The notes under the pieces were generated by a model. The model was given only the letters and a program-made list of their open reading frames with translations, did not search any database and had not been told where the DNA came from. The translations under genes were made by a program, and so were the position numbers. Of a stretch of DNA of 64,000 nucleotides, positions 25,894 to 55,519 are shown piece by piece. The DNA comes from a virus, in the IMG/VR virus record IMGVR_UViG_3300017917_001562, positions 1 through 64,000 of that record. One strand, written 5' to 3'. Within the stretch, counting starts at the first letter, position 1; every line of letters begins with the position of its first letter.

Positions 25894-27287
25894 TGACTAA
25901 AAGTGTATTTTTAACATCAGCTGAAGACGCCAAAGTTAAACTCGGTTCAGGCCTATGCCTTGCTAAATGGAAACAAGTAAGTCTGCACTTGCCTACTGGA
26001 TTGAATAACAGTTGTTATCATCCGCCATTGCACGAAATTGACGCAGAGTTATTGCAAGGCAATCCTTCTGCATTACATAACACACAGCACAAAAAAGCAC
26101 AGCGTAAAATTATGTTACGCAATGAGCGTCCCGAAGAATGTAGCTATTGCTGGACTCAAGAAAATTTGGGTAATCTAAGTGATAGACATTATCGCAGTGG
26201 CGAACCTTGGGCCGCCAAAGACTTTGATACTATTAGAAATAGTACCGGTGATGAAGATGTAGTGCCTAGTTATGTTGAGGTTAATTTCAATCATGCCTGT
26301 AATCTTAAATGCAGTTATTGCAGTCCGCAGTTTAGTAGTTCGTGGGGAGATGAAGTTGCAAGATTAGGAGCATATCCTACATCGGTACCACATAATGCTC
26401 CTGAGCACTTTACTGGTCGTCGTAGACCTATACCTGCTCGAGAACATAATCCTTATGTAGAAGCATTTTGGTCTTGGTGGCCCAAACTGTATCCTGAACT
26501 AGAACATTTTCGCATGACAGGTGGTGAGCCTTTATTGGACCGAAACACCTACAGAGTGTTTGACTATGTGCTGGCCAATCCTAGTCCTCGATTACATTTA
26601 AATGTTACCAGCAACTTCAGTGTTGAGCCTGAGTTATTTGAACGATATCTAAATTATGTAAAACGACTAACCAGTAATGAACCCAAGTATCTAGAACACT
26701 TCATGCAGTATGTCAGTCTAGACGCTATGTTTTTCAAAGCCGAATATGCAAGATATGGTTTAAACTTTGAACGGCTGTGGGAAAATGTTAACAGATTTTT
26801 AAATGAAGTGCCAAATAGAAGTAGCCTTACATTTATCATTACTATGAACGCATTAAATGTAACAGGTGTACAAGAACTAATCAACGGTATATTGGGTTTG
26901 AGATCGATTTACAGTAAAACTTATCAGCGTGTTTGGTTTGATACTCCTATACTTAGAAAGCCGGAATGGCAAGACATAAGAATACTGCCCGAAAGTTATG
27001 CAGACAAATTAGAAGAAGCGTGGGCATTTATGATGAAACACATTAATACAAATAAAGAAAACGAGCACCATGGTTTCAAAGATTACGAACTGCATAGACT
27101 TCAGCGTGTAATTGATTATATGCAGGAAGGTTGCAAATTAGACAAAGAATATGTTAAAATGCAACAAGCCGATTTTTATCGTTTCTTTAACGAGCACGAT
27201 CAAAGAAGAAACACAGGATTTATAAGAACATTTCCAGAAATGTACGACTTTTGGAAACAGTGCGAATACTATGCCAAAGCAAAATAA
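25893..27287 (+). CDS. Radical SAM protein with N-terminal auxiliary Cys/His motif
   Basis: CNLKCSYC and TGGEP; N-terminal CLAKW..SCYH..CSYCW; start via TAATG overlap at 25893. Confidence 0.85.
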   Translation: MTKSVFLTSAEDAKVKLGSGLCLAKWKQVSLHLPTGLNNSCYHPPLHEIDAELLQGNPSALHNTQHKKAQRKIMLRNERPEECSYCWTQENLGNLSDRHYRSGEPWAAKDFDTIRNSTGDEDVVPSYVEVNFNHACNLKCSYCSPQFSSSWGDEVARLGAYPTSVPHNAPEHFTGRRRPIPAREHNPYVEAFWSWWPKLYPELEHFRMTGGEPLLDRNTYRVFDYVLANPSPRLHLNVTSNFSVEPELFERYLNYVKRLTSNEPKYLEHFMQYVSLDAMFFKAEYARYGLNFERLWENVNRFLNEVPNRSSLTFIITMNALNVTGVQELINGILGLRSIYSKTYQRVWFDTPILRKPEWQDIRILPESYADKLEEAWAFMMKHINTNKENEHHGFKDYELHRLQRVIDYMQEGCKLDKEYVKMQQADFYRFFNEHDQRRNTGFIRTFPEMYDFWKQCEYYAKAK

Positions 27288-28620
27288 CGAAACAGATTTA
27301 GAATATAAACGCCGAGTGATTGATATTAAAAGCGAAAGTTTCTGCGGCGCAAAATGGTATAATGCTACCATATGGTTGGGTTCAGGCATGACTACCAGTT
27401 GCCATCATCCACCTGCACATAAAGTGGATATCAACGAAGTTATACAAAATCCCAAAGCACTGCACAACACCGATAAAAAGAAAATAGACCGTGCCATGAT
27501 GAAGGAAGGCGTGAGACCTCCGGGCTGCGAATACTGTTGGAAAATAGAAGACATGGGTCGAGATGCTGTCAGTGATCGTGTCTACAAAACAGTTATATAT
27601 GATGATAAGGATTTAAATGATGCATTCAATTCAGACACGATTCAAGACTTTGATCTTAGGACTTTGGAAATTGCTTTTGATCGTACTTGCCAGTTTGCTT
27701 GTAGCTACTGTAACCCTGCTTTCAGTAGTACATGGGTCAAAGACATTAGAACTAACGGGCCGTATGACGGGCTTCGAAGTGACGGTCGTGGTCATTTCAC
27801 TCATGACCATGGTGCTAGTCAACTTTTTAAGTATGGTGAAACTAATCCGTATGTGGAAGCATTTCATAAATGGTGGGAATCAGACTTACACAGAACGCTA
27901 ACTGAACTGCGTATCACCGGCGGAGAACCTTTAATGTCTGCAGAGACTTGGAGACTGATTGAATGGTTCAAAACCAACAAAGGCAAAAGTAAAACTAGAC
28001 TAGCAATTAACAGCAACTTAGGCACCCAAGTAGACATTGACAGACTATTGGCTGTTGTAGATGGAGTCAAAGTTGACTTATACACCAGCAACGAGTCAAT
28101 GAGCCTGCAAGCAGAGTATATTAGGGACGGACTCGTATTTGACGATTGGGCTAACAATGTAGAAAGACTGTTGGATAGTGGCAAGTTTCGTGGCCTGCAT
28201 GTCATGTGTACCATTAATGCATTATGCTTGGATAGTTTAGATAGCTTTTTAGAAATGGTCGCTAACTGGAAAATTGAATATGGTCGAGATGCTATAAATT
28301 TTAGCCTTAATATTCTTCGCTTTCCTAGTTTCCAAAGTGCATTAGTACTGCCCGACGATATTAGAACAAAATACAGAGATCAATTGGCTCAATTTATGGT
28401 CAATCATAAAGGCTACAGCTATATACATGAATACGAGTGGAATCAACTGCAACGATTAGTTGATTATTTAGATGTAGTTAAAACTCCACATAGCGAAGCA
28501 TTTGATTTGCCCACACTACGCAGTGATTTTAAAAAGTTTTATCAACAATATGATCTGCGTAGGAATAAAGACTTTATCACTGCATTTCCTGCATTGAAAA
28601 CATGGTATGAAAATCTATGA
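27271..28620 (+). CDS. Radical SAM protein with N-terminal auxiliary Cys/His motif
   Basis: CQFACSYC, TGGEP; N-terminal CGAKW..SCHH..CEYCW. Confidence 0.85.
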   Translation: MPKQNNETDLEYKRRVIDIKSESFCGAKWYNATIWLGSGMTTSCHHPPAHKVDINEVIQNPKALHNTDKKKIDRAMMKEGVRPPGCEYCWKIEDMGRDAVSDRVYKTVIYDDKDLNDAFNSDTIQDFDLRTLEIAFDRTCQFACSYCNPAFSSTWVKDIRTNGPYDGLRSDGRGHFTHDHGASQLFKYGETNPYVEAFHKWWESDLHRTLTELRITGGEPLMSAETWRLIEWFKTNKGKSKTRLAINSNLGTQVDIDRLLAVVDGVKVDLYTSNESMSLQAEYIRDGLVFDDWANNVERLLDSGKFRGLHVMCTINALCLDSLDSFLEMVANWKIEYGRDAINFSLNILRFPSFQSALVLPDDIRTKYRDQLAQFMVNHKGYSYIHEYEWNQLQRLVDYLDVVKTPHSEAFDLPTLRSDFKKFYQQYDLRRNKDFITAFPALKTWYENL

Positions 28621-29930
28621 CAAAAGATTTCTATAAAAATTACAATTATACTGCTCGTGCCCCTTATTTTATTAAGAGAGACGAATTAACAGAGCAACAA
28701 TGGCAAAGACTTACTGAAAGCAAAACTTTCTGTATGTTACCCTGGGTTCATATGCATGCCTTTCCGGACGGCCGTGCATATCCTTGCTGTTTAAGTGAAT
28801 ATTGGCATCCTGTAGGTGATCTTCGTAAGCATACTATGAAAGAAGTATGGAATCAAGACGCATACAAAACAATGCGTAAAAATATGTTGGAAGACAAGCC
28901 CTGCAAAGAATGTACTAAGTGTTACGAACAAGAACAACACGGCGCATTCAGTATGCGTTACGATGCAAATAGAAATTACGGACATCACATAGCAGAAGTA
29001 GATCAAACACTACCAGATGGTACTAACCCTGAATTTAAAATTAGATATTGGGATGTGCGTTTTAGCAACTTATGTAATTTCCGTTGTCGCAGTTGCGGTC
29101 CTATTTTTAGTAGTAATTGGTACAATGATCATGTTAAGTTATATAACCGTGTACCGGATGTTCTTAATCGCCCAATGGAGCGAGTAGAATATACCACCGG
29201 AGACGAAGATGGAATGATTGCTCAAATGGAAGAACATATTCCATATCTCGAGCAAGTATATTTTGCTGGTGGCGAACCCTTAATAATGAAAGAACATTAT
29301 TATTTGTTAGAAAAACTTATTGAGTATGGAAAGACAGATATTCGTATTCAATACAACACAAACTTTAGTGAACTAAAATACAAAGACAAACATGTTTTTG
29401 AATATTGGAAACATTTTAAAAATGTCAGCGTAGGAGCAAGTTTAGATGCCAGTGGAGCCAGAGCAGAATTGATGCGAAAAGGCACAGATTGGAATCAAAC
29501 AGTAAGAAATCGTGAGCTAATGATAGAACAAGTTCCTCATGTAGATTTTTATGTCAGCAGTACAGTCAGTTCAATGAATGTGCTACATGTATTAGACTTC
29601 CATAAAGAATGGACTGAACTAGGATTAATCAAAGCTAAAGATTGGAATGTGAATATTTGTCAAGGCCCAGACTGGTACCGCGCTGACATTTTTCCAGACT
29701 GGTTTAAAGCAGGTTTTATTAAACCTGCTTATGAAAATCATATAGAATGGTTAGAACCACAAGACAATTTAACTAGAGCTACAAATGGATTTAAAAGTAT
29801 GCTTAGTTTTATTATAAACAACAACGGCACACAGCATTGGAATAGATTTGTAGAAGAAACTAACAAATTAGATCGAGTGCGTAATGAAAACTTCTGGGGC
29901 ACCTTTACTGAATTAAAAGGAATGCAATGA
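28617..29930 (+). CDS. Radical SAM protein with N-terminal Twitch/SPASM-like domain
   Basis: CNFRCRSC, AGGEP; N-terminal CMLPW..DG...PCC..GDL..VWN..CTKC. Confidence 0.85.
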   Translation: MTKDFYKNYNYTARAPYFIKRDELTEQQWQRLTESKTFCMLPWVHMHAFPDGRAYPCCLSEYWHPVGDLRKHTMKEVWNQDAYKTMRKNMLEDKPCKECTKCYEQEQHGAFSMRYDANRNYGHHIAEVDQTLPDGTNPEFKIRYWDVRFSNLCNFRCRSCGPIFSSNWYNDHVKLYNRVPDVLNRPMERVEYTTGDEDGMIAQMEEHIPYLEQVYFAGGEPLIMKEHYYLLEKLIEYGKTDIRIQYNTNFSELKYKDKHVFEYWKHFKNVSVGASLDASGARAELMRKGTDWNQTVRNRELMIEQVPHVDFYVSSTVSSMNVLHVLDFHKEWTELGLIKAKDWNVNICQGPDWYRADIFPDWFKAGFIKPAYENHIEWLEPQDNLTRATNGFKSMLSFIINNNGTQHWNRFVEETNKLDRVRNENFWGTFTELKGMQ

Positions 29931-34430: not shown

Positions 34431-35906
34431 ATGAATATTCTAGGTATCAGCGCAGGATTTCACGATGCGGCCGCAGCTGTGATAAATGACAACGGCGATA
34501 TTTTATTTGCCGCACACAGCGAAAGATACAGCAAATATAAACACGACAGACACATCAATCAGGGATTAATTGATGATGTACTGCGCTTCAATCCTAAAGT
34601 TGTTGCATACTACGAAAATCCTTTGCAAAAACAATTAAGACAACTATACGCAGGACAAGGATTTGACCTACACAATTGGCGTCTAAGTCAGGTACTTACA
34701 AATGAAACTGGTGGCTGGTTTAAAGGTTTAAAAACCCGCAGTTACAATCATCATCTTAGTCATGCAGCTGCAGGATTTCAAACTAGTCCATTTGACCGCG
34801 CTACAGTAGTAGTAATAGACGCAATAGGTGAATGGGACACTATTAGTATTTGGGCCGCAGAATATAAAAATGGTCGTGCCAAATATCGTAAATTATGGAG
34901 TCAGCGTTATCCACACAGCATAGGTTTATTTTATACAGCAATGACTAAACGAGTTGGTCTTAAACCCTTAGATGAAGAATATATTTTAATGGGAATGGCC
35001 GCATTAGGTAAAGATATAGATAGAAATTTAATGCAAAGTGTTTTAGTAGAAGACGAATACAAAATTAAATTTAGAAACAATTTGCATTTGGGCGTAGACG
35101 AAACTTTTCTAAGAGCAGCCGATCCAATGGACATTGCAGCTAGCACACAAAGTCTTACTGAAGACTTAATACTTAATGTTATTAAAAGAGCGCAAGACTT
35201 TAAATACAGTTCAAATCTGGTGTACATGGGCGGTGTAGCTCTTAATTGTACAGCAAATAGATTGTTAGGAAATTATTTTGATGACATATGGATTATGCCT
35301 AATCCTGGTGATGCTGGAAGTAGTCTTGGCGCTGCAGCTTTGGCTTATGGGGGTAGAATTAACTTTAACACTGCTTTTCTTGGGCACTGTATTAGTGGTC
35401 CTTACCCTGTTGCTAATCTTCTTGATGAGTTACTGGATAATAAAATCGTTGGAGTCGCTTCGGGACGAGCAGAGTTCGGTCCCAGGGCCCTCGGAAACAG
35501 AAGTCTTTTGGCAGACCCTCGAGGATACGAAATCAAAGATAGAGTTAATGGGATTAAGCGTAGACAGATGTTTAGGCCGTTTGCGCCAATTATTCTCGAA
35601 GAACTAGTTAACGACTATTTCGAAATGCCACCAGGCTGGCACAACAGTCGCTACATGCAAGTTGTGGCAAAATGCCGAAGACCAGATTTATTTCCTGCTA
35701 TCGTTCACGCAGACGGAACCAGCAGAGTCCAAACAGTGCCTAATAACGGTTCAGGTATTCGAAAGCTATTAGAACAATGGCTAATAATGACAGACTGTCC
35801 TATGTTACTCAATACTAGTTTGAATATTCGTGGTGAACCAATGGTAAATGACAGGGCAGACGCTGATAGATTCGAAAAGCTATACAAAGTCAAAGTTTGC
35901 TCATGA
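34431..35906 (+). CDS. Carbamoyltransferase (NodU/CmcH/TobZ family)
   Basis: ILGISAGFHDAAAA, HHLSHAA, GGVALNC, PGDAGSSLG, EFGPRALGNRSLLADP, RPFAP, VHADGTSRVQT, LLNTSLN. Confidence 0.92.
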   Translation: MNILGISAGFHDAAAAVINDNGDILFAAHSERYSKYKHDRHINQGLIDDVLRFNPKVVAYYENPLQKQLRQLYAGQGFDLHNWRLSQVLTNETGGWFKGLKTRSYNHHLSHAAAGFQTSPFDRATVVVIDAIGEWDTISIWAAEYKNGRAKYRKLWSQRYPHSIGLFYTAMTKRVGLKPLDEEYILMGMAALGKDIDRNLMQSVLVEDEYKIKFRNNLHLGVDETFLRAADPMDIAASTQSLTEDLILNVIKRAQDFKYSSNLVYMGGVALNCTANRLLGNYFDDIWIMPNPGDAGSSLGAAALAYGGRINFNTAFLGHCISGPYPVANLLDELLDNKIVGVASGRAEFGPRALGNRSLLADPRGYEIKDRVNGIKRRQMFRPFAPIILEELVNDYFEMPPGWHNSRYMQVVAKCRRPDLFPAIVHADGTSRVQTVPNNGSGIRKLLEQWLIMTDCPMLLNTSLNIRGEPMVNDRADADRFEKLYKVKVCS

Positions 35907-45811: not shown

Positions 45812-45840
45812 ATTATATAGCCAAAACGGTTTTATGTCAA
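45812..45840 (-). promoter_or_regulatory. Consensus sigma70 promoter
   Basis: TTGACA(45840-45835)-17 nt-TATAAT(45817-45812) on the minus strand. Confidence 0.8.
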
Positions 45841-45842
45841 TG

Positions 45843-46130
45843 TTACATCCATTTTAATCTAAACCAATTGGCATCTTCTGGAGATTCAAAAGCTATTTTT
45901 ACGCCTTGAATTTTATATTCACTTTGGCAATTTTCTTTTAACCAATCTCTTTTTTGTTGACATAAATTATCTGTGACCATATGATTGGTAACATGAACAA
46001 CATATCCGGACCCAAGAGCATTGTTTACCAATGTCCACCCCGATACTTCTACCCAAACACTAAAGTCTATTTCGTATTGAACCTGCTCAGCTAGTTGATT
46101 TAGAATGTGTTCTTGTATATTATTGTTCAT
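45843..46130 (-). CDS. Array-family small protein (ends WFRLKWM)
   Basis: WLKENC..IAFESPEDANWFRLKWM; start MNNN at 46130. Confidence 0.7.
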   Translation of the reverse strand: MNNNIQEHILNQLAEQVQYEIDFSVWVEVSGWTLVNNALGSGYVVHVTNHMVTDNLCQQKRDWLKENCQSEYKIQGVKIAFESPEDANWFRLKWM

Positions 46131-46132
46131 TG

Positions 46133-46354
46133 TTAACTCCATCTAAGACAAAAAGCTGTCAGTGTCGGTTTATCGGGCAACACCACAGTCATACCTTGGA
46201 CCTTACTTTTATTTTGTTTACACCACACTTGTAGATCATCGTAGTGTATATTCCAGTATGCTATGTCTGACAGCACAATCAACAATTCGCCGCCTGTTAC
46301 TAGCGTATCAGGAATAATGAATCTTCGTCGGTGACCGTTGTCAAGTAAACTCAT
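46133..46354 (-). CDS. Array-family small protein (ends FCLRWS)
   Basis: ATGA-overlap start at 46354; WCKQN..TLTAFCLRWS. Confidence 0.7.
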   Translation of the reverse strand: MSLLDNGHRRRFIIPDTLVTGGELLIVLSDIAYWNIHYDDLQVWCKQNKSKVQGMTVVLPDKPTLTAFCLRWS

Positions 46355-46710
46355 CTTACTAAGTTTAACATGGTTTGATATTGTTGCCAAAGATCTTGAA
46401 GTCCGGGATGTTGATGTCTAAGCCTAGTTTCTTCTTCTTGCTTATATACAATTTCTTGAATATCTCGCTTTAGGTCTACTGCATGTTGCTTTTCTTCCAA
46501 CCATTGATCGTGTTCCATTAAAGCACGAAAACGATCTTCAGGCATGTGAATTTCTACACAAGTAAGATCCTCATATGGATTATTGTTATAAATGTTTGGA
46601 TCACTGGCCCATATTTTATAATCAACTCGTCTTACTCGTCTATGCATTTTTGTACTAGGCACTACATAAGCATCATATTTGTAACAAAACTCTGTAAAAT
46701 CTTTTGTCAT
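46351..46710 (-). CDS. Hypothetical protein (non-family member inside the array)
   Basis: 119 aa, no LRW end. Confidence 0.7.
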   Translation of the reverse strand: MTKDFTEFCYKYDAYVVPSTKMHRRVRRVDYKIWASDPNIYNNNPYEDLTCVEIHMPEDRFRALMEHDQWLEEKQHAVDLKRDIQEIVYKQEEETRLRHQHPGLQDLWQQYQTMLNLVR

Positions 46711-46711
46711 T

Positions 46712-46996
46712 TTAACTCCATTTTAATAACCATAAAGCTATATCGTCTTTATGTGTAAATCCCCACCATTCTTGTTGATTATGAAAGTCGGAACTGTAAG
46801 ACAGAATTTGGCCGCGGCAATGCAAATTACACCAAGTCCAGTATTCGTTGGAAAATTTAACAGGTTTAACACAAACAAACCATTTACTGGGCTTGTGCGG
46901 TTTAACTTGTTCTGGCACCCAAAGTCCACTATCATCGTCACCAAGTCCTGGGCGAATATCGTTCCAAAATTCTTTGAACTGCTTTCGATTTATCAT
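46712..46996 (-). CDS. Array-family small protein (ends WLLKWS)
   Basis: Start MINRK at the junction repeat; WCNLHC..WGFTHKDDIALWLLKWS. Confidence 0.7.
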   Translation of the reverse strand: MINRKQFKEFWNDIRPGLGDDDSGLWVPEQVKPHKPSKWFVCVKPVKFSNEYWTWCNLHCRGQILSYSSDFHNQQEWWGFTHKDDIALWLLKWS

Positions 46997-47205
46997 GACC
47001 ACTTCAACAATGTTAACAAGGCTTTTTTCTCGTCTGCGAAATGCCAAGTAGTACCATAAGTGGGGCTCCTTAGATTCATATCATATGTACGCCACCAGTC
47101 TTGTTTAAACTCACCTACATAAGTTTCTAACCACTCATTAAATGATACATCTGGTACTAATGAACGATGAAGACCCTTGAGTTGACTTTGATGTATTTTA
47201 TTCAT
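46993..47205 (-). CDS. Array-family small protein (ends LLKWS)
   Basis: WLETYVG..WHFADEKKALLTLLKWS. Confidence 0.7.
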   Translation of the reverse strand: MNKIHQSQLKGLHRSLVPDVSFNEWLETYVGEFKQDWWRTYDMNLRSPTYGTTWHFADEKKALLTLLKWS

Positions 47206-47207
47206 AC

Positions 47208-47438
47208 TTACGCCCATCGCAGTTTCCATATTACATATAGTTCTGGAGTCAAGTATAAAGCAGTATTACTGTCGGGATCATCTCGCATTGGTCGCCATAA
47301 ATCAGGATCTTGCACTCGGATCCACTCAAACATACCCTCGGGGGTCCTAAATCCTTCAAAGCTTGGATCATCAAAACAATATGTTTTGTATCCGTGTGTA
47401 AAAAGTTCGTAACGACCGTTGCGTGGCAAATGACTCAT
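47208..47438 (-). CDS. Array-family small protein (ends WKLRWA)
   Basis: ATGA-overlap start MSHLP. Confidence 0.7.
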   Translation of the reverse strand: MSHLPRNGRYELFTHGYKTYCFDDPSFEGFRTPEGMFEWIRVQDPDLWRPMRDDPDSNTALYLTPELYVIWKLRWA

Positions 47439-47647
47439 CGGTTTCCTTTTAAAATAAACCACACAGCATCCTGCTCACGCTCAAACCACACTGTTCGACT
47501 ACCGTAGTAGAGATAGAACTTACCAGGCGAATCCATTAACTGCAATTCACGCTTGAGTTGGGCATAGTTCCAATTTAGGTTGATTGTGCGTAGAACAGGA
47601 TGCCAGTGCTGTTGCCGAACCTTTTTATCTTTGTTCCAATATTTCAT
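47435..47647 (-). CDS. Array-family small protein (ends WFILKGNR)
   Basis: VWFEREQDAVWFILK motif. Confidence 0.7.
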   Translation of the reverse strand: MKYWNKDKKVRQQHWHPVLRTINLNWNYAQLKRELQLMDSPGKFYLYYGSRTVWFEREQDAVWFILKGNR

Positions 47648-47871
47648 GACCACCTTAATATAAACCAACTCATATCTTTACGAGCATCCGGATAATCTAA
47701 AAAATAAAAATTAATTAAATCGTGTGTAATAGTATTACCATCACTGTGATATTGATTAGTAATGTAATGTGGACAGTTTTTCTTTGCCCATTGAATAGCA
47801 CTATACAAATCAAGTTTACTACGGTCTACTGTTATGTAGTTATCAGTAATCTTCATATGCCAGTTGTCCAT
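47644..47871 (-). CDS. Array-family small protein (ends WFILRWS)
   Basis: WAKKNC..FYF..KDMSWFILRWS. Confidence 0.7.
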   Translation of the reverse strand: MDNWHMKITDNYITVDRSKLDLYSAIQWAKKNCPHYITNQYHSDGNTITHDLINFYFLDYPDARKDMSWFILRWS

Positions 47872-48083
47872 CAACTCCACCTTAACAAAAATGCTGTATA
47901 ATCTTCTTCATGCTCAAATACCGCAGTAACAAACTTGTTGTCTTTGTCCTCGACCATTTTGCAGCCAAACTCCTGTAACCATTTTTTTCGGCTTTCTTCT
48001 AGTCCCAACGACTGAACACCAAGTGTTTCACGCCACGCACGACGAAACATTGAATGATGCTTTTTTAAATCTACTTCAATCAT
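47871..48083 (-). CDS. Array-family small protein (ends FLLRWS)
   Basis: WLQEFG..VFEHEEDYTAFLLRWS. Confidence 0.7.
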   Translation of the reverse strand: MIEVDLKKHHSMFRRAWRETLGVQSLGLEESRKKWLQEFGCKMVEDKDNKFVTAVFEHEEDYTAFLLRWS

Positions 48084-48732
48084 GACCACCTCAATGCTAG
48101 CATTGTAGCATGATTTGCATATTTTCGTCTAACAAATTGATAAATAAAAATGCGAGTCGCGATGCGTCAACATCCACCCGCCCTAACAGTTGAAAAGGAA
48201 CTATCAGCATGAATATTTATTCCCCGGCACGACCCCCATCTGGGTATTATGTTTACGCATATATAAGATCAAAAGATTCGAAAACAGGTAAAGCAGGGAC
48301 TCCGTATTACATTGGTAAAGGCAAGGGCAATCGAGCCACTCGACGTCACGGAAAAAACCCTATTCCAGATTTTGATTTCATAGCAATATGTGAAGAAAAT
48401 TTAACTGAAATTGGTGCATTAGCGATTGAACGATTCCTTATACGTGTTTGGGGGAGAAAAGATATCGGTACCGGAATTTTGTTAAACAGAACAGACGGCG
48501 GGGATGGGACATCGGGTAGATCAGCAGAGTCAATCTGCACCCAAACTGCGCCACCAAGGTCTACCCATCTTGGATCATTATGATCTACAATTAAAGGGCC
48601 CACAGGCCACCTTACTTTGATAACAACACCAGGAACAAACCTCCACCAAAGTTTTTGCCAAATGTTTAATCCGCAAGGCAAATATCTGCCAGACGGCAAT
48701 TGAAATAAACTTTTAATTTCCCACTTAGCCAT
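48080..48732 (-). pseudogene. Array-family gene disrupted by an inverted endonuclease fragment
   Basis: N-terminal part [15 protein letters not shown] (48732 to about 48519); orphan out-of-frame tail VRRKYANHATMLALRWS* (48133-48080) carrying a perfect junction repeat. Confidence 0.65.
48140..48520 (+). mobile_element. Inverted insertion: late-promoter motif, leader and truncated GIY-YIG homing endonuclease (ORF 48209..48583)
   Basis: YYVYAY..PYYIGKG.GNR..E..LI...[12 protein letters not shown] catalytic domain; after TSGR the ORF reads the antisense of the disrupted gene; ATAAATA at 48140, AAGGA SD. Confidence 0.75.
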
Positions 48733-49133
48733 TATGAATATTTCAATGCTATCATTACGGCATCTTGCTCATTGTTAGTTGCTACAAACACTTTATCCTC
48801 ACCGCCTAGTTCGTTTACTGTCCATTCCCAATCAGTAGAAGGCTCACACATAACACGATGAAACTCCCAAACAGCATTTTCACCTAAAGCACGAGCAGGC
48901 CAAAAATAATGTTTTGTATCTTCTCGCACGGTCCACCCAAACGGTTGTTCTAAGTTAAAAAACTTGTTAGGATCAACGATAACAATATGTTTAAAATTTC
49001 TAAAAATATCTTTGATACGAGTAGCACGGACATTAACGGTTTGTTCATACCATGCCTTATACTCACGCTCTGCTTTTGTATAACCAGTTGTGCGAGTAAG
49101 ATACCAATCTTTGATATTGTCGAATAAAATCAT
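48732..49133 (-). CDS. Array-family protein (ends IALKYS)
   Basis: 133 aa; FVATNNEQDAVMIALKYS. Confidence 0.7.
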   Translation of the reverse strand: MILFDNIKDWYLTRTTGYTKAEREYKAWYEQTVNVRATRIKDIFRNFKHIVIVDPNKFFNLEQPFGWTVREDTKHYFWPARALGENAVWEFHRVMCEPSTDWEWTVNELGGEDKVFVATNNEQDAVMIALKYS

Positions 49134-49136
49134 GGT

Positions 49137-49376
49137 TTATTCTGCTAATACTTCAAACAGTTCAGCATACTGTGTTTCGGGTTCATCAACGAATCCAGTA
49201 TAGACCCATACTCTGCGACAATAAACTTTTTTAAGCCACACCCAACGGTTGTTAATAGTTTTATGCGGCAACAACACAAATGTTTCAACCCAGTCGTGTT
49301 CTACCGCGGTTATGTCGCCTATGTTTGGGATAAACATTGCTCCTCTAACTATTTCTTTAAATAGGGAAAAACTCAT
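49137..49376 (-). CDS. Hypothetical protein (non-family member inside the array)
   Basis: F.LLP.KT....WVWLK..Y motif, similar to 60864..61121. Confidence 0.6.
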   Translation of the reverse strand: MSFSLFKEIVRGAMFIPNIGDITAVEHDWVETFVLLPHKTINNRWVWLKKVYCRRVWVYTGFVDEPETQYAELFEVLAE

Positions 49377-49594
49377 GCCCACCTTAACGCTAATAAAATG
49401 TAAATTTTTTCATGAACATCAAATACATTATAGTTGATATGCCATTTTTCGTCAATGTTTTGAAACCATTGTTTATCTTCCTGCTCACAGAAAGATGTTC
49501 TTAACCAAATACTAACTTCTTTTTTACAAGATATAGTATACCAAGATTCATTATTAACTATAGCCTTAGTCCTTACTTTGAAGTTAGATTTCAT
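49373..49594 (-). CDS. Array-family small protein (ends LALRWA)
   Basis: Junction-coupled start MKSNF. Confidence 0.7.
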   Translation of the reverse strand: MKSNFKVRTKAIVNNESWYTISCKKEVSIWLRTSFCEQEDKQWFQNIDEKWHINYNVFDVHEKIYILLALRWA

Positions 49595-49839
49595 ACCCAC
49601 CTCAACGCAAACATAGTATATTTTTTCTCATCTACCACTGCAACCTGCACAACTTCGTATCCGTGCCTACCATATATATCTTGTTTAGGACATAGATCTA
49701 ATCTGAGCCCGGCTGTTTGTTCAATATGATACTTAAACCCAAGCATACGGTCCTCTCCAGAACTGGGCCAATCTGGGTCATATTCCATATAACATTTGTT
49801 TAGCAAACGATTTACGGATTTTGTATCTATAAATCTCAT
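49591..49839 (-). CDS. Array-family small protein (ends FALRWV)
   Basis: VVDEKKYTMFALRWV. Confidence 0.7.
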   Translation of the reverse strand: MRFIDTKSVNRLLNKCYMEYDPDWPSSGEDRMLGFKYHIEQTAGLRLDLCPKQDIYGRHGYEVVQVAVVDEKKYTMFALRWV

Positions 49840-50048
49840 GAGCTCCACCTCAATGCAAACATAGTTGCATCCTTGCTATTGCGGAAGTAATAATCCACAC
49901 CCTTCATTGAGGGCACTCGATTCCAGCGACCTTTAAACGGGCCCATGTTTTCGCCTAGCCATTCCTCAATCTTGTAATGCCCGGCGTGATCCATGGGCAT
50001 AGAGATAGGAATCTTTGCTGGCCAAATTTCTTTCTTTAGTTGTCTCAT
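49836..50048 (-). CDS. Array-family small protein (ends FALRWSS)
   Basis: WLGENMG..YYFRNSKDATMFALRWSS. Confidence 0.7.
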   Translation of the reverse strand: MRQLKKEIWPAKIPISMPMDHAGHYKIEEWLGENMGPFKGRWNRVPSMKGVDYYFRNSKDATMFALRWSS

Positions 50049-50335
50049 GACCACCTCAACTCTAAGAATGTTACCATTTCCGGAGGAACTAAGAATACAC
50101 TTTCAAACCATAGGTACCATGTGAACTTTTCTCGTGAGAAATGTTCGTTCATCCACACAACCTCTGGACCTAATACATCTACGCAAACATAATCTTCATA
50201 TCCCATGGGAGGGGCACGGCCAGTATCAACACGCGGCGGAATCAGGAATGTTGATTCATATTCGGCCAACCATTTAGCGTGAGCGGCTAGTTCGTTATCC
50301 GGTATCAGAGCAACACTTTGGAAATTTACTTTCAC
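50045..50335 (-). CDS. Array-family small protein (ends FLELRWS)
   Basis: GTG start at the junction; WMNEHF..MVTFLELRWS. Confidence 0.7.
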   Translation of the reverse strand: MKVNFQSVALIPDNELAAHAKWLAEYESTFLIPPRVDTGRAPPMGYEDYVCVDVLGPEVVWMNEHFSREKFTWYLWFESVFLVPPEMVTFLELRWS

Positions 50336-50565
50336 GACCACCTCAACATAAACCAAGTATACGCTTGTTCATCATAAAAGTCAATATACCTATCACCGTA
50401 ACCGCTTAACGGATTTATGGGTTTGGCTATCCAAAAGTTTGCCGACCAGTCCATGAGAGCATGATTGATTTCTTCCTCGCCAAAACTATCTGGTAAAAAG
50501 TTATACCACCATCTTGGGATTTCAGATGGATGGCGATCTTCTTCAAATATCTTTATTCTAATCAT
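50332..50565 (-). CDS. Array-family small protein (ends FMLRWS)
   Basis: IDFYDEQAYTWFMLRWS. Confidence 0.7.
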   Translation of the reverse strand: MIRIKIFEEDRHPSEIPRWWYNFLPDSFGEEEINHALMDWSANFWIAKPINPLSGYGDRYIDFYDEQAYTWFMLRWS

Positions 50566-50771
50566 GACCACCTCAACACAAACATCATATAATCATCTAC
50601 ACGGCGAAATTCAAATACACCTTCACTAACATAACGCCAGTTCTGTTCCTTGAATCGTCCTCTACACCATTCCATCGCAGGCAACCAGCCCCAGTGCTCA
50701 TACTCCTTGTGTGCAGGTTGAGGCACACTTGCAATAATCCAACTGTTGATAGGATTTCTTGGCAATTTCAT
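50562..50771 (-). CDS. Array-family small protein (ends FVLRWS)
   Basis: EWCRGRF..FEFRRVDDYMMFVLRWS. Confidence 0.7.
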   Translation of the reverse strand: MKLPRNPINSWIIASVPQPAHKEYEHWGWLPAMEWCRGRFKEQNWRYVSEGVFEFRRVDDYMMFVLRWS

Positions 50772-51022
50772 GACCACCTCAGAATAAACATACTAGCGTC
50801 TTTTTCTTTTTCAAACATCCAGATGCTACCTCGACCTTGATGGTTACCTTGTAAGTTTTCTCTGCACCATTTTTTGATTTCGTATATCTGCGTCTCGTGC
50901 ATCCTTGCGGGCCACTTTATCTCAACCTTTGTATAGCCTAGTTTAATCATCATGTCGCACATGATTTCCCAGTCTGTTTCTTCCTGGAGGGTTTTTGCAA
51001 GGTCTTGTTTTATTATTGTCAT
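50768..51022 (-). CDS. Array-family small protein (ends FILRWS)
   Basis: WCRENL..WMFEKEKDASMFILRWS. Confidence 0.7.
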   Translation of the reverse strand: MTIIKQDLAKTLQEETDWEIMCDMMIKLGYTKVEIKWPARMHETQIYEIKKWCRENLQGNHQGRGSIWMFEKEKDASMFILRWS

Positions 51023-51240
51023 GACCACCTCAACATAAACAAAGTAGCATGTGCGGGATCAGAAAACCACATTACATATCCAGAGCCGGGTTCTAGTCGC
51101 CAGTAGTGTTCGCTAGCTGGTTTTCCATATTGACAGTTATTAGGACTACCAAAAGTTTTTAAACACCATGCCCACCAAACAGGCAGGCCTTGTTGATTAT
51201 ATACATGTCTATGTTTCATGGGTACAATTACAATATTCAT
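51019..51240 (-). CDS. Array-family small protein (ends FMLRWS)
   Basis: WCLKTFG..MWFSDPAHATLFMLRWS. Confidence 0.7.
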   Translation of the reverse strand: MNIVIVPMKHRHVYNQQGLPVWWAWCLKTFGSPNNCQYGKPASEHYWRLEPGSGYVMWFSDPAHATLFMLRWS

Positions 51241-51482
51241 GACCACCTCAACGCAAATAACATAGCCTTTTTTTCGTCTACGATAGAGATCATAGTATCA
51301 CCTAACCTTGCGCTATACACTCCCCACTCATCGCCCGCTTCAGGCTCAATATCAATGCCGTCAGGCCAACTATTTTTTAACCAACGGCCACCGGGTCCTA
51401 CATTGTTGTATAACCAATGTTCTAACTCTACAAACTGTATCCGGTGTTTGCTCATAATGGTAGTAGCATCAAAGTTAATCAT
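51237..51482 (-). CDS. Array-family small protein (ends FALRWS)
   Basis: WLYNNVG..IVDEKKAMLFALRWS. Confidence 0.7.
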   Translation of the reverse strand: MINFDATTIMSKHRIQFVELEHWLYNNVGPGGRWLKNSWPDGIDIEPEAGDEWGVYSARLGDTMISIVDEKKAMLFALRWS

Positions 51483-51727
51483 GACCACCTCAGCGTTGTA
51501 AGCATCATGTCTTGCTCAAATTCAAAATAAAATCGGCCGGTTGATTCACAAAAACTATATCGGCCATGGCTGGGATAATTGTTACACCAGTTTACAATAG
51601 CTGCTTCTTTAACGAGCCATTCTAAAGTACCAGTATCGTAACTATCGAACTCTTCCTTATTCCAAAAGTTAGTAGAGTCTACAACATATTTGAAATTTTC
51701 TATGTCTAAGTTGGCTATTTTCTTCAC
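51479..51727 (-). CDS. Array-family small protein (ends TTLRWS)
   Basis: GTG start; WCNNY..FYFEFEQDMMLTTLRWS. Confidence 0.7.
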   Translation of the reverse strand: MKKIANLDIENFKYVVDSTNFWNKEEFDSYDTGTLEWLVKEAAIVNWCNNYPSHGRYSFCESTGRFYFEFEQDMMLTTLRWS

Positions 51728-51936
51728 ACCCACCTCAACAGTGCAAACATTCTATCTTTTTCATTTGTAATATACCACAAGTCAACACCATTAAGTGTGC
51801 CCTGGTATTCTGTTTCTATAGAATTTTTTTCACACCACTTATGAAAGTTTATTCTTTGCTGTGAGCTAACAGTAAAGCCCCGCGGATCACCTACTAATTT
51901 TACTCTGCCCTTTTCTGCAAAAACTTTAGTGGTCAT
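51724..51936 (-). CDS. Array-family small protein (ends FALLRWV)
   Basis: WCEKN..WYITNEKDRMFALLRWV. Confidence 0.7.
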   Translation of the reverse strand: MTTKVFAEKGRVKLVGDPRGFTVSSQQRINFHKWCEKNSIETEYQGTLNGVDLWYITNEKDRMFALLRWV

Positions 51937-52151
51937 GCCCACCTCAGTGCAAACCACTCTTTGTTTTCTCTAACTTGAAATATGTATCCGTTAGAGCCTG
52001 AACTTAGAAGAAAGTATTCTACTTTGTTTTCGCGCATCCAACCGTAGATGTCAAGCCACTCCTGAAATGTGCGAACAAGGTAAGTAGGGTAACCTGCCCA
52101 ACCTGGGTAGCTAGTAGATTCGACTTTCATATTCATTGTGTTATCAATCAT
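51933..52151 (-). CDS. Array-family small protein (ends FALRWA)
   Basis: WMRENKV..EWFALRWA; start could be a downstream ATG. Confidence 0.7.
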   Translation of the reverse strand: MIDNTMNMKVESTSYPGWAGYPTYLVRTFQEWLDIYGWMRENKVEYFLLSSGSNGYIFQVRENKEWFALRWA

Positions 52152-52482
52152 GAAAATCGTAATCGTAGCAGTGTCTAATTTCGTGTCCTAAATTTGAAGT
52201 GCTGGTGTTGGTACCTGTAATTACAGTACACTGATCACCTCGCCAAACAGCACAACCAACAATTCTATTTTTACCAAATCTACCATTGGTGCTTTTATCA
52301 CAGATTTGTTGCAGCTCTTGGTCAGACACTTGACGCCAAGTAATAGTTCTTACTCTTGTTTGTGATTTAGCAGTACTGATGTGTTCGGCGTTGTATTCCC
52401 ATGCCTTAACGGGGTTGACAGGTTGAGCACTACAACCAGATACTGCTGCAACAATCGCAAAAACTAAAGACATTTTTTTCAT
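52144..52482 (-). CDS. Predicted lipoprotein with HExxH motif
   Basis: MKKMSLVFAIVAAVSG-C lipobox; LGHEIRHC. Confidence 0.7.
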   Translation of the reverse strand: MKKMSLVFAIVAAVSGCSAQPVNPVKAWEYNAEHISTAKSQTRVRTITWRQVSDQELQQICDKSTNGRFGKNRIVGCAVWRGDQCTVITGTNTSTSNLGHEIRHCYDYDFHD

Positions 52483-52483
52483 G

Positions 52484-52708
52484 TTAATTCCACCTTAACA
52501 AAAACATTGTCAAATCTTTTTGATTTTTAAATTCAAACATATCGTAGGCAATCCTGTAACCACAATGATTTTCCCTGCACCATTCTACCATTTCAGCTAT
52601 AGGATAGCCTAAATAATGACCTTCTTGATCAAGTATAAATTCATCCACCGAAATTTTTACAGCAAGCCTAAGCCTTGGATCTGGTTCAATGGCGTAGGCT
52701 TTGCTCAT
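52484..52708 (-). CDS. Array-family small protein (ends FLLRWN), first cassette
   Basis: TAATG overlap with the vWA gene; WCRENH..FEFKNQKDLTMFLLRWN. Confidence 0.7.
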   Translation of the reverse strand: MSKAYAIEPDPRLRLAVKISVDEFILDQEGHYLGYPIAEMVEWCRENHCGYRIAYDMFEFKNQKDLTMFLLRWN

Positions 52709-53985
52709 TATGCTTTGGCCAATTCCTTGGCTCGTTCATAAATTGCCCAAACACCAAAGGGAGGTTCTGCTTGCTCGTTGCCTTTGATAATGAATACAGT
52801 ATCGCAGTATTCGCTGTCACCCCACTCACCAAAAGGCATACCGTCAGTGAACATGATAAACTTCTTAGGTTGAATATCATTTTCCTTCATGTATTCCCAA
52901 TTAGCCATAAAGTCAGTACCACCACCACCTTGGGGCTCATAGGTAAGAATGTCCTCTAGTGATTCTGAACTGTAAACTTGGTGATTATACACTGCGGTGT
53001 CAAAACTCCACACTTGAATCTTGTACTCGTCATAGGCTTCCATAATGCCTTTGATCTCAGCCATAAAAGCCTTGATGTCTTCCTCGCCAATAGAACCCGA
53101 AGTGTCAATGGCAATACAAACATCAATCTGTTGACCCGGGATCATACCAGGCATAACAGCATCCAAGTGCCAGCTACGGCGTGAAGGGCGCAACCAAGTA
53201 AAGTCGTTTTTAACGGTGCTTTGGATTTGTTGTTCCAACAGCTCACGCCAGTTAACTACAGGCCTAGTCAAGTCTTTGATCAGACGCTTAACACCTGACG
53301 GCAAATTGCTGGCGCCTGTGGCCTGTGCGGCCTGTAGCAGTGCTTCGCGGATTTCGTCTTTGATGGCCTGTCGTTCTTCTTTGCTGAGACGGGGACGACC
53401 TTTGCCTTCTTTCTCGTCACCATCTTCGTCGCTACTGCCGTTGTCACCATCACCGTCCAAGTGCTCGTCTAACAGTTGATCCATCAAATCGCTGATGTCA
53501 ATTTTTTCTGCATTTTCATAAAGGTCGTCGTAGACTTCTTCAGCACTCCAACCTTTGTATTTGACATCATACAGGCAAGGGGTAATTTTGTCACCAATCC
53601 GTTGCTCAATCAAATCACTGTTAACACAATAGTCAGCGGCACAATTAAACAAACGGCGATCGCGGTCGCCATTACGACCCATATGGTCATAGACATTGTG
53701 CAGAACTTCGTGGCCAAACAAGAACTCAAGTTCTTTGGGTTTCAGTTTATTAACGAACTCAGTGTTGTAATAAAATTTACGACCATCGGTTGCAGCAGTA
53801 CCAAGCCAACTGTCTGCATTAACCAATTGCAGTCTGGTAGCAAGGTTACCAAAGAATGGTGCCTTAAGCAAGAGACCGATACGAGCAGTAGTCAATTTTT
53901 CACGCACTGCACGATCCAAAGCAGGATCGGTATTGTCAGTGAGACGACCTGCGATGTCTTTTTGTTTACTGTCTGATGTAGCCAT
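52708..53985 (-). CDS. Metallopeptidase-like (HExxH) plus vWA domain protein (DUF2201-type)
   Basis: TAATDG, HEVLH, N.AADY.VN; MIDAS DTSGS, GGGTDF, FTDG. Confidence 0.85.
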   Translation of the reverse strand: MATSDSKQKDIAGRLTDNTDPALDRAVREKLTTARIGLLLKAPFFGNLATRLQLVNADSWLGTAATDGRKFYYNTEFVNKLKPKELEFLFGHEVLHNVYDHMGRNGDRDRRLFNCAADYCVNSDLIEQRIGDKITPCLYDVKYKGWSAEEVYDDLYENAEKIDISDLMDQLLDEHLDGDGDNGSSDEDGDEKEGKGRPRLSKEERQAIKDEIREALLQAAQATGASNLPSGVKRLIKDLTRPVVNWRELLEQQIQSTVKNDFTWLRPSRRSWHLDAVMPGMIPGQQIDVCIAIDTSGSIGEEDIKAFMAEIKGIMEAYDEYKIQVWSFDTAVYNHQVYSSESLEDILTYEPQGGGGTDFMANWEYMKENDIQPKKFIMFTDGMPFGEWGDSEYCDTVFIIKGNEQAEPPFGVWAIYERAKELAKA

Positions 53986-54010: not shown

Positions 54011-54039
54011 ATTATAACACACTTGCGAATTTTTGTCAT
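54011..54039 (-). promoter_or_regulatory. sigma70-type promoter upstream of the vWA gene and array
   Basis: ATGACA-17 nt (AAAATTCGCAAGTGTGT)-TATAAT, followed by AAGGAG SD. Confidence 0.7.
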
Positions 54040-54052
54040 TAATACCAAAGTA

Positions 54053-54346
54053 TTACAACCATTTAAGTGTAAACAGTTCTAGTTCTTGATTTGTTTTAAG
54101 ATAAATTAATGGAGTATCGTATTTAATATCCTCTAATCTATAAGACCAAGATTGGTTCCTAGTAAATTTTGCATGACTTAAATGAAGGTTGAGTTGGACA
54201 CCCATACCCCATATTTCATTGCACCAATGACACCATTCTACAAATTTAGGAATTCTAGAGTCAAAGGGTTCGTGCAGTTCAATCCTGTATGCAAAATGCC
54301 CATATCCTCCATGACGGCGATCTAATTTTACAACCTTGGCGGGCAT
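54053..54346 (-). CDS. Array-family small protein between the AAA and vWA genes (ends FTLKWL)
   Basis: WCNEIWG..IYLKTNQELELFTLKWL. Confidence 0.7.
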   Translation of the reverse strand: MPAKVVKLDRRHGGYGHFAYRIELHEPFDSRIPKFVEWCHWCNEIWGMGVQLNLHLSHAKFTRNQSWSYRLEDIKYDTPLIYLKTNQELELFTLKWL

Positions 54347-54409: not shown

Positions 54410-55519
54410 TTACTTGCTGTTGGCGGCTACAATGTATTTGCCAAATCGCTTATGGAACTCGTCGAAATGTTTCAACTTGCCAGGAATGAAAGGCAGATTG
54501 TAGGTAGTCAGTGCAACACGAGCACCCATAACAGTCAATTCGGTAGTGAAATTGTCCATCATGTAACGGAAGAAGAAATCTGCCATACTGTTAAATTTCT
54601 CGTCAGGCTTGCCGTTATTTTTTAGCACATGATCCTGAAGTTCATAGCAGAGGTTCACAGTTAGTGAGTACATGGCTGAAATTTCTTTGACCTTAAGATC
54701 AGTGACTTTGCCGTCAAGAATGTCAATAGGCTTAGGCAACTGACCTGCAACCTTGCGGTGCGCCATAAACTTAACTGCAACACCTTCGCCCACAGCACCT
54801 GAAATCAAGTCAGTAAGTTCGCTGTCAGTGCAGTCATTGTCCTCCAACAGTTCACTGACAAAAGTCCACGAACGAGGAGTAGCGAACGCACGGCTTGAAC
54901 TACGGGGGTCAAAGTCGTAAAGGTCTTGTTTAGCAAAACCAATATAACCAATCACATCTGAACTGATGCGGTTAATGGTAGCCCATTGCTCCCACGATTC
55001 GTGATCAACTCGCATCTCCAAGTGAACGAAGCGGTTAGCCAACGGAGCAGGCATACGATAAGTAACGCCTTTATCAGTTTCACGGTTACCTGCGGCAATC
55101 ACAACCACATTGTCAGGCAGTGTATACTTGCCAATACGGCGGTTCAAAACCAGCTGATAAGCTGCGGCCTGGATGCTGGGTGCAGCACTGTTCATTTCAT
55201 CAAGGAACAAAACAACCACAGGATACTGTTTGGCCAGTTCTTCACTGGGCAAGTCGATTGGGGGAGCCCAATCCATCAAACCATTGTCTTTGTTGTAATA
55301 AGGAATACCACGCAGGTCAGTGGGTTCCATCTGTGCCAAACGAAGGTCAATCATAAGACCGCCCATTTCTTCAGCAATACTAGCAACCAGTTCGGACTTG
55401 CCGATGCCTGGAGGACCCCACAGGAACAGGGGTCGTTTTTTCTTAAAACACTTGGTAATGGCACGACGAGCGGTCAGTGCGGTTACAGTGCGATTTTCAG
55501 TAATTGAGTCTTTCGACAT
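54410..55519 (-). CDS. MoxR-like AAA+ ATPase
   Basis: Walker A GPPGIGKS, DLRG.P, Walker B LFLDEMN, AAGN, LANRF, TPRSW. Confidence 0.88.
   Translation of the reverse strand: MSKDSITENRTVTALTARRAITKCFKKKRPLFLWGPPGIGKSELVASIAEEMGGLMIDLRLAQMEPTDLRGIPYYNKDNGLMDWAPPIDLPSEELAKQYPVVVLFLDEMNSAAPSIQAAAYQLVLNRRIGKYTLPDNVVVIAAGNRETDKGVTYRMPAPLANRFVHLEMRVDHESWEQWATINRISSDVIGYIGFAKQDLYDFDPRSSSRAFATPRSWTFVSELLEDNDCTDSELTDLISGAVGEGVAVKFMAHRKVAGQLPKPIDILDGKVTDLKVKEISAMYSLTVNLCYELQDHVLKNNGKPDEKFNSMADFFFRYMMDNFTTELTVMGARVALTTYNLPFIPGKLKHFDEFHKRFGKYIVAANSK

Follow-up and report, generated by a model that had tools for sequence, protein, structure and literature searches.

Genes that abut with an ATGA overlap, and that carry the Shine-Dalgarno (SD) sequence of the second gene inside the first, are known as coupled genes from the E. 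coli trp genes and from many phage operons. In lambdoid phages, boundary or linker sequences have been proposed as preferred crossover points that make mosaics (the Susskind-Botstein modular theory; later HK620/HK97 comparisons), and in integrons an attC site, an imperfect inverted repeat of about 57-141 nucleotides (nt), stands at each cassette boundary. The closest analogue of the locus described here is the modular shuffling mediated by promoter-early stem-loops (PeSLs) in the hyperplastic regions of T4-type phages (Arbiol et al., 2010, PMC2839356; Comeau et al., 2014, PMC4122927), and mini-circles have been demonstrated for PeSLs (PMC2839356). Here we analyze a 14-nt repeat, reading TCATGACCACCTCA on the plus strand, that recurs at the gene junctions of a tandem array of small minus-strand genes (45843-52708) in the first 64 kilobases (kb) of the IMG/VR virus record IMGVR_UViG_3300017917_001562; this 64,000-nt stretch is the window, and the record itself has 108,581 bases and a CheckV completeness of 31%. 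Translational coupling and motif-mediated modular shuffling are each already known; their fusion in one coding repeat, spread over many uncultured large phages, was not described in the literature searched.

The explanation that we favor, with a probability of roughly 0.7, is that the repeat is the 3′ end common to the small phage genes of one tandemly expanded family, on which three constraints (protein, translation, and recombination homology) are overlaid. Where the genes abut, the tail codons are written as [T/C]TG AGG TGG NNA TGA, and the last four codons would double as a very strong SD sequence (GAGG, extended by UGGUC) placed 5 nt before an AUG that overlaps the UGA; every gene would then hand ribosomes to whichever gene comes next on a long polycistronic message. 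The same spelling leaves 12-17 identical bases at each boundary (often 25-35 with the preceding codons), through which general short-homology recombination or replication slippage could delete, duplicate, insert, or exchange whole cassettes, within one genome or between co-infecting phages, with the recombinants all retaining intact reading frames and a working ribosome-binding site (RBS).

Like PeSLs, the junctions are short, conserved motifs of a regulatory kind that recur where the small non-essential genes of a hypervariable region meet, the ends of indels and replacements between close relatives lie in the motif, and recombinants would keep a working expression signal. PeSLs, however, are intergenic, longer, and transcriptional (a sigma-70 promoter plus a terminator hairpin), whereas the junction here is 14-15 nt long, lies inside coding sequence, is predicted to act in translation (SD, stop, and start), and encodes the C-terminus of one paralogous family. 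Sigma-70-like sites occur in the region at chance level (32 versus 29.2 expected), none of them at junctions, and there are no terminators at junctions either; with neither a promoter nor a terminator there, the junctions were rejected as PeSLs, although their behavior is PeSL-like. With coupled genes they share an SD sequence in the last codons of the upstream gene, a UGA/AUG overlap, and zero intergenic space, but here one identical junction recurs at at least 15 consecutive boundaries and at hundreds of junctions across phage lineages, is tied to a conserved protein motif, and has an SD duplex whose predicted strength far exceeds that of every other gene in the record. The lambdoid sequences are likewise short common sequences at gene boundaries proposed as crossover points, but they are sporadic, intergenic or at the ends of unrelated genes, unlike a periodic dual-coding repeat within one family.

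The 14-mer occurs on the plus strand exactly seven times (starting at 48080, 50045, 50562, 50768, 51019, 51237, and 51479), as had been counted in the original prediction, against no copies across 100 dinucleotide-preserving shuffles. About ten variants had also been proposed, and we recovered seven with at most three mismatches (46993, 47644, 49373, 49591, 50332, 51724, and 51933) and three offset ones (47871, 49836, and 52484) in which the last codon is extra or altered. All copies are located at the 3′-ends of minus-strand genes, and six of the seven exact copies terminate an intact family gene: 50045-50058 ends the cassette 50048-50335 and starts 49839-50048; 50562-50575 ends 50565-50771 and starts 50335-50565; 50768-50781 ends 50771-51022 and starts 50565-50771; 51019-51032 ends 51022-51240 and starts 50771-51022; 51237-51250 ends 51240-51482 and starts 51022-51240; and 51479-51492 ends 51482-51727 and starts 51240-51482. 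The seventh exact copy (48080-48093) terminates a 15-codon remnant of a disrupted family gene (TKYANHATMLALRWS, then stop) and would supply the SD sequence and ATG for the cassette 47874-48083. Read on the minus strand as the last four codons plus the stop, the exact copies spell [T/C]TG AGG TGG TCA TGA (TTG in five of the seven; CTG in 50768-50781 and 51479-51492), and the ATG or GTG of the next gene overlaps the stop as ATGA or GTGA, in agreement with the reading proposed earlier. The variants, all on the minus strand, are TTG AAG TGG TCA TGA, with lysine AAG (46993-47006), TTA AGG TGG TCA TGA (47644-47657), TTA AGG TGG GCA TGA (49373-49386), TTG AGG TGG GTA TGA (49591-49604), CTG AGG TGG GCA TGA (51933-51946), and two that provide a GTG start for the next gene, TTG AGG TGG TCG TGA (50332-50345) and TTG AGG TGG GTG TGA (51724-51737).

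The stop/start overlap is found at 15 junctions in the window and at 279 non-identical junctions across all the loci that we collected (see below). From 52708 down to 49373 (minus strand) there is zero intergenic space between the array genes, and the junctions are spaced about 230 nt apart. The core GAGGTGG has 12 copies in the whole record, 12 out of 12 on the minus strand and all between 48086 and 51939. We also observed that some genes of related loci (9954-10292 and 9143-9301 in L003, the latter corresponding to 14551-14733 in L004) meet the repeat in another frame, for example as ...GCAGATATTTGAGGTGGTCATGA, with the stop inside TTGAGG; the repeat can thus persist behind a gene without an in-frame LRW tail.

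The proposed pairing of the junction with the anti-SD sequence holds: GAGGUGGUC pairs with GAUCACCUC over nine consecutive positions, including one G-U. The predicted duplex has an energy of -14.1 kcal/mol, compared with a mean of -3.6 (best -10.0) at the 69 other gene starts of the record and -3.1 at random positions, and GAGG is spaced 5 nt from the AUG. AAGGAG or AGGA is found at -12 to -7 in other genes of the record, which makes SD recognition by the host probable. Codon choice at the junction departs from that of the genome, as had been noticed for arginine. In 85 long open reading frames (ORFs), AGA makes up 39%, CGT 25%, and AGG 8% of arginine codons, whereas within the last four codons of the array genes AGG accounts for 15 of 18. 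In the window, junctions with an ATGA or GTGA overlap have AGG at all but one (AAG), while AAA, AGA, or CGA is used by members that end in TAA and whose next start is displaced or missing. For example, the distal members at 45843-47438 (minus strand) write the [RK]-W tail as AAA, AGA, or CGA followed by TGG and end in TAA with no ATGA overlap, the sole exception being the junction at 46993; and an outlying member at 54053-54346 (minus strand), which has no directly following gene and ends in ...FTLKWL, writes its tail CTT AAA TGG TTG TAA.

We extended this comparison to 68 further viral loci gathered by the peptide D-A-[TVM]-[ML]-F-A-L-R, a selection that is independent of codons. As many as 16 members per 6 kb are present at these loci, joined by the same junction and showing the same codon bias in contigs of 35-49% G+C content. 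Among 452 non-identical junctions, the fraction of AGG among arginine and lysine codons is 0.74 when the next start lies 2 nt from the tryptophan codon, 0.68 at 5-6 nt, 0.34 at 7-12 nt, 0.06 beyond 12 nt, and 0.09 where no start follows; within the family genes of all loci, AGG accounts for 8.2% of arginine codons. With one junction for each of 270 clusters at 50% identity, AGG is found in 142 of 205 versus 2 of 44 (Fisher p=2e-16). The preceding leucine is TTG or CTG, whose terminal G completes GAGG, in 83% of the overlapped junctions versus 29% in the record, and the serine is TCA at overlapped junctions, whereas without a start/stop overlap it is mostly AGT (18 versus 13 TCA). The choice of AGG and of TTG/CTG therefore depends on a start at SD distance and decays with that distance, as an SD function predicts and as common descent or protein constraint alone would not. 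These data support the original proposal that the junction serves as SD sequence plus stop/start for the following gene. Ribosome binding at the junction in the host is predicted, and translation of the next gene may begin there either by termination-reinitiation or by independent initiation at a very strong SD sequence.

We then compared the array with related loci, using as an anchor the gene for a metallopeptidase-vWA protein (DUF2201_N plus DUF2201; 52708-53985, minus strand), whose stop overlaps the start of the first array gene. This query returned 80 related loci, but expanded arrays are present only in the closest (L001 to L005, with 89% vWA identity) and in L025 (74%); relatives at 73-82% have zero to two members. 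The array, bounded by flanks with about 80% DNA identity, is 6.9 kb long in the window and 7.4 kb long in both L003 and L004, compared with 3.0 kb for L005 and 4.0 kb for L025; collinear anchors within it are only scattered. A metagenome scan with P0004 recovered distant arrays only (L160 and others) and not a near-identical 74-kb contig.

In the near-identical pairs (L003/L004, about 95%; L001/L005, 98.5%) the indels are whole cassettes between direct repeats. For example, L004 has one additional 197-base-pair cassette relative to L003, between copies of the 17-nt direct repeat TTGAGATGGGCATGAAA; L001 has two additional cassettes relative to L005, between copies of AGGTGGTCATGA; one replacement between L003 and L004 has TTGAGGTGGTCAT at either edge; and an insertion in L102 has its left end inside TTGAG/G (the slash marks the cut). 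Over three lineages (the clade of the window, L100 to L107, and L124/L133) we counted 11 non-redundant indels or replacements. The prediction that breakpoints between related arrays would fall in the repeat was borne out for most: in eight of the 11 events both ends fall between -36 and +15 nt relative to a junction stop, and in a further two a single end does. At a junction spacing of about 230 nt such intervals take up roughly one fifth of the array, and the clustering thus greatly exceeds what chance would give.

The ends of homology behave in the same way where a single cassette is shared by otherwise unrelated arrays (88.6-93.5% DNA identity). Cassette F14 (50332-50578, minus strand) is 93.1% identical to its counterpart in L083/L084 and 88.6% to that in L116, with unrelated neighbors and homology that stops in the junction repeats on both sides; cassette F7 (47642-47886, minus strand) is 90.6% identical to L083/L084, again with homology stopping at both junctions; and cassette F11 (49599-49859, minus strand) is 93.5% identical to L081, with homology stopping at the junctions and the right end just past TTGAGG. 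The order of F7 and F14 is inverted in L083, and reversed order in those other loci was also seen for F11, F12, and F16. Cassette-level mosaicism bounded by the repeat is thus evident from these alignments, and direct repeats flanking the indels point to ordinary short-homology recombination as the likely pathway.

Several points weigh against giving the repeat this combined role. A repeat of 14-15 bases offers little length for RecA-type recombination, and the 108-kb fragment yielded no integrase, resolvase, or RecA domain, other recombinase families not having been searched. The anti-SD sequence used is an E. coli-type 16S 3′-end, which may not be that of the host; junctions from related contigs are partly dependent, and clustering at 50% identity left the result unchanged; and local folding gives the junctions a mean unpaired probability of 0.35 versus 0.46 ± 0.14 at control positions, that is, neither especially open nor especially closed. 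BLAST alignment ends are drawn into any common repeat, and breakpoint placement is no finer than the repeat itself. Selection for intact genes would likewise leave the surviving breakpoints at gene boundaries, and in one event (E8, L100 versus L103) a whole-gene indel lies at a non-family boundary devoid of the repeat; the survival of intact genes may therefore account for part of the breakpoint pattern.

These last points are the substance of the alternative that survives best, though we consider it unlikely: the SD and coupling role would be real, the repeat would play no mechanistic part in rearrangement, and the concentration of breakpoints at junctions would come from selection against cuts within genes together with alignment extension. 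Besides E8, this is in line with the gene-boundary mosaicism that is general in phages (as in the modular theory and the lambdoid boundary sequences) and with events E3 and E11, each of which has one end 30-65 nt inside the next gene. Selection alone does not readily account for the exact 12-17-nt direct repeats that flank the indels or for aligned segments that overlap by 26-35 nt, a signature of homology-mediated events; nor for hybrid junctions with the crossover inside the motif, as in L102 (TTGAG/GTTTCAATGA) and L081 (TTGAGG/TACTCGTGA). Moreover, close relatives differ in array content, so that these small accessory paralogs can plainly be lost; truncated copies would then be expected to survive too, yet few are seen.

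The protein constraint is seen in the family itself. About 23 small paralogous ORFs (65-133 amino acids) lie between 54346 and 45843, all on the minus strand, with C-termini of the form [F/L/M]-x-L-[R/K]-W-x; according to the ORF list, the C-termini, and a profile search, the array consists mostly of this family, with its F-x-L-[RK]-W tail. The 23 aligned paralogs share only 15-45% pairwise protein identity, with a core that comprises a conserved tryptophan in a W-C-x-E-N helix, a beta-hairpin (x-F-x-F), and a last helix D-A-x-x-F-x-L-R-W. In an exhaustive search, a profile hidden Markov model built from them matched 788 viral clusters (50% identity) at E<=1e-3, nearly all of 56-110 amino acids, matched through the last residue and ending in ...F-x-L-[RK]-W-[S/A]. 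The AlphaFold2 model of the cassette 50771-51022 (mean predicted local distance difference test score 90.6) has the order helix, strand, helix, strand, strand, helix, and the motif ends the last helix. The C-terminal helix ending in L-[RK]-W-x thus appears to be the protein-level constraint on the repeat.

Annotation of the family gave little. No Pfam, PHROG, or NCBIfam model covers the family core in the cassettes and 40 relatives; Foldseek against the PDB found nothing at E<=0.001; VIA-align against 48,161 chains gave generic small alpha/beta matches alone, with Z<=6.2 (ribosomal L10, RRM, ACT, and polymerase palm subdomains); structural matches in BFVD are uncharacterized proteins from uncultured Caudovirales and Atu_ph07; and the ESM Atlas returned only viral clusters labeled 'hypothetical protein', as did the cluster look-up. 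In 5 of the 40 relatives, Pfam Gp23 and PHROG major-head families were matched weakly, and only by the N-terminal extension of one subfamily. This subfamily (50771-51022 on the minus strand, P0008, P0023, P0046, and others) has an extra N-terminal helix (..L..EEIDWEI..D..) that gives these matches, which may reflect a short helical motif in common and not homology. Among other relatives (P0010, P0015, P0021, P0029, P0042, and P0011) some are two-domain fusions of two family units, and in P0011 the last 17 residues are tandemly duplicated; possibly, the fusions and the duplication are footprints of junction loss or unequal exchange.

The profile also matches cultured jumbo phages at dispersed sites (28 in Sinorhizobium phage Phosso, 6 in Atu_ph07, and 3 in PA5oct), where the tails that were examined lack SD-like codons (for example, CTG CGC TGG AGC TAA in Phosso). 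Neither a megablast of the array against 50,697 GenBank phage records nor a tblastn of two cassettes against that collection gave a match. The [RK]-W pair, kept in these cultured phages and also in the window members that use AAA, AGA, or CGA plus TGG with a TAA stop, indicates that the protein motif is older and wider than the nucleotide repeat. Such conservation, over 788 clusters and where SD-like codons are lacking, together with a TGG that is free identity (the sole tryptophan codon), is what would be expected if the repeat were a mere footprint of common descent and a conserved C-terminus, with no role in translation. We find this very improbable: between paralogs that are 15-45% identical, synonymous sites are expected to be saturated, yet the rare AGG is used at about 70% where a start follows at 2-6 nt versus 0-9% where there is none, graded by distance and persisting after clustering, with the same bias in contigs of 35-49% G+C.

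The original prediction had also likened the locus to an integron-like array, and here only the analogy of outcome stands: the array is one-directional, its cassettes lack promoters of their own, content and order vary, and boundaries are sharp. We found no match to PF00589 (Phage_integrase) or PF00239 (Resolvase) in the 31%-complete record of 108,581 bases. A repeat search found no local inverted pair, such as the imperfect inverted repeat of an attC site, at any boundary, only direct repeats; the cassette boundaries are themselves coding and have no spacer. Crossovers do not occupy a fixed position, with breakpoints from -36 to +15 nt around the stop and hybrid junctions cut at differing positions, and homology-driven repeats flank the events. 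A true integron was therefore rejected. A broader version, in which a recombinase encoded elsewhere in the roughly 350-kb genome recognizes the junction in a site-specific, integron-like manner, could place that enzyme outside the record, but coding and SD constraints fully explain the motif and the crossover points vary, and we give this version very little credence. Least plausible of all is a signal at the DNA level in the G-rich core, such as one that modulates host RecBCD in the manner of Chi. The copies do all point the same way, and their GGTGG core also occurs in E. coli Chi (GCTGGTGG), a resemblance only, but the conserved octamer TGAGGTGG differs from Chi at two positions and the conservation depends on how far away the next start lies, a pattern that a DNA signal would not predict.

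The array is interrupted at one point by an antisense ORF of 124 amino acids (48209-48583, plus strand), which disrupts the family gene that ends at the 48080 junction. The 5′ part of this gene (48732 to about 48539) is homologous to a 126-amino-acid member in L003 ending in KYADHATIMALQWS; its first 65 codons and its last 15 (48080-48128) are kept and about 45 are gone. By eye, the antisense ORF has a GIY...YIG-like motif, and it looks like a homing-endonuclease-type insertion into the array; Pfam gave no match for it, and its PHROG matches (15526 and 10829) are families of unknown function. A non-family gene of 112 amino acids (52144-52482, minus strand), lies between two family members and has an LPAM-like lipoprotein signal and weak matches only; a homologous stretch of it is kept in L003 and L004 (about 70% DNA identity).

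Upstream of the vWA gene there is a MoxR-type AAA+ ATPase (54410-55519, minus strand). The pair of metallopeptidase-vWA protein and MoxR AAA+ is known from 'group 2.2' jumbo phages (PMC7824862), and since contigs related to the record reach 320-383 kb, the record probably represents part of a jumbo phage genome. A candidate promoter for the vWA gene and the array is located at 54011-54039 (minus strand), where a sigma-70-like sequence matches at 11 of 12 positions and has an extended -10 TG. Immediately past the last array gene, at 45812-45840 (minus strand), the sigma-70 consensus (TTGACA-17-TATAAT) is matched perfectly (12/12). Both are consensus matches alone; together they would frame the vWA gene and the array as a single transcription unit. 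Rfam at the gathering threshold gave no match between 45000 and 54500. Elsewhere in the window we observed a single ORF of about 4,463 amino acids (3420-16811, plus strand) and, on the opposite arm (27271-29930 and 34431-35906, plus strand), two adjacent radical-SAM-like genes and a Nol-like carbamoyltransferase (PHROG 1601, E=7e-91), which look like auxiliary metabolic genes.

A more far-reaching possibility is that the junction is a selected, integrase-free device for cassette exchange in aquatic jumbo phages, a 'universal adaptor' that goes beyond a by-product of coding and SD function; we hold this tentatively and think it doubtful. If it were true, any member of the hyper-diversified family could be excised, possibly as mini-circles, moved between phages, and inserted in any array in any order, and the cassette would be expressed at once, since the adaptor carries SD, stop, and start. 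The family might then perhaps consist of host-takeover or anti-defence binders built on one small alpha/beta scaffold.

Under the explanation that we favor, one short sequence would be subject to three simultaneous constraints at over 450 junctions, which come from many contigs of uncultured phages. The concept of mobile regulatory cassettes, as known for PeSLs, would extend from intergenic transcription signals to a translation signal inside genes, and the junction could serve as a natural design for plug-and-play polycistronic expression. The analysis also defines an abundant, unnamed family of small phage proteins that is present in the cultured jumbo phages Phosso, Atu_ph07, and PA5oct, where experiments are possible. 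For the phages themselves, it would offer a simple account of how large phages expand, shorten, and exchange their arrays of small accessory genes with no dedicated recombinase.

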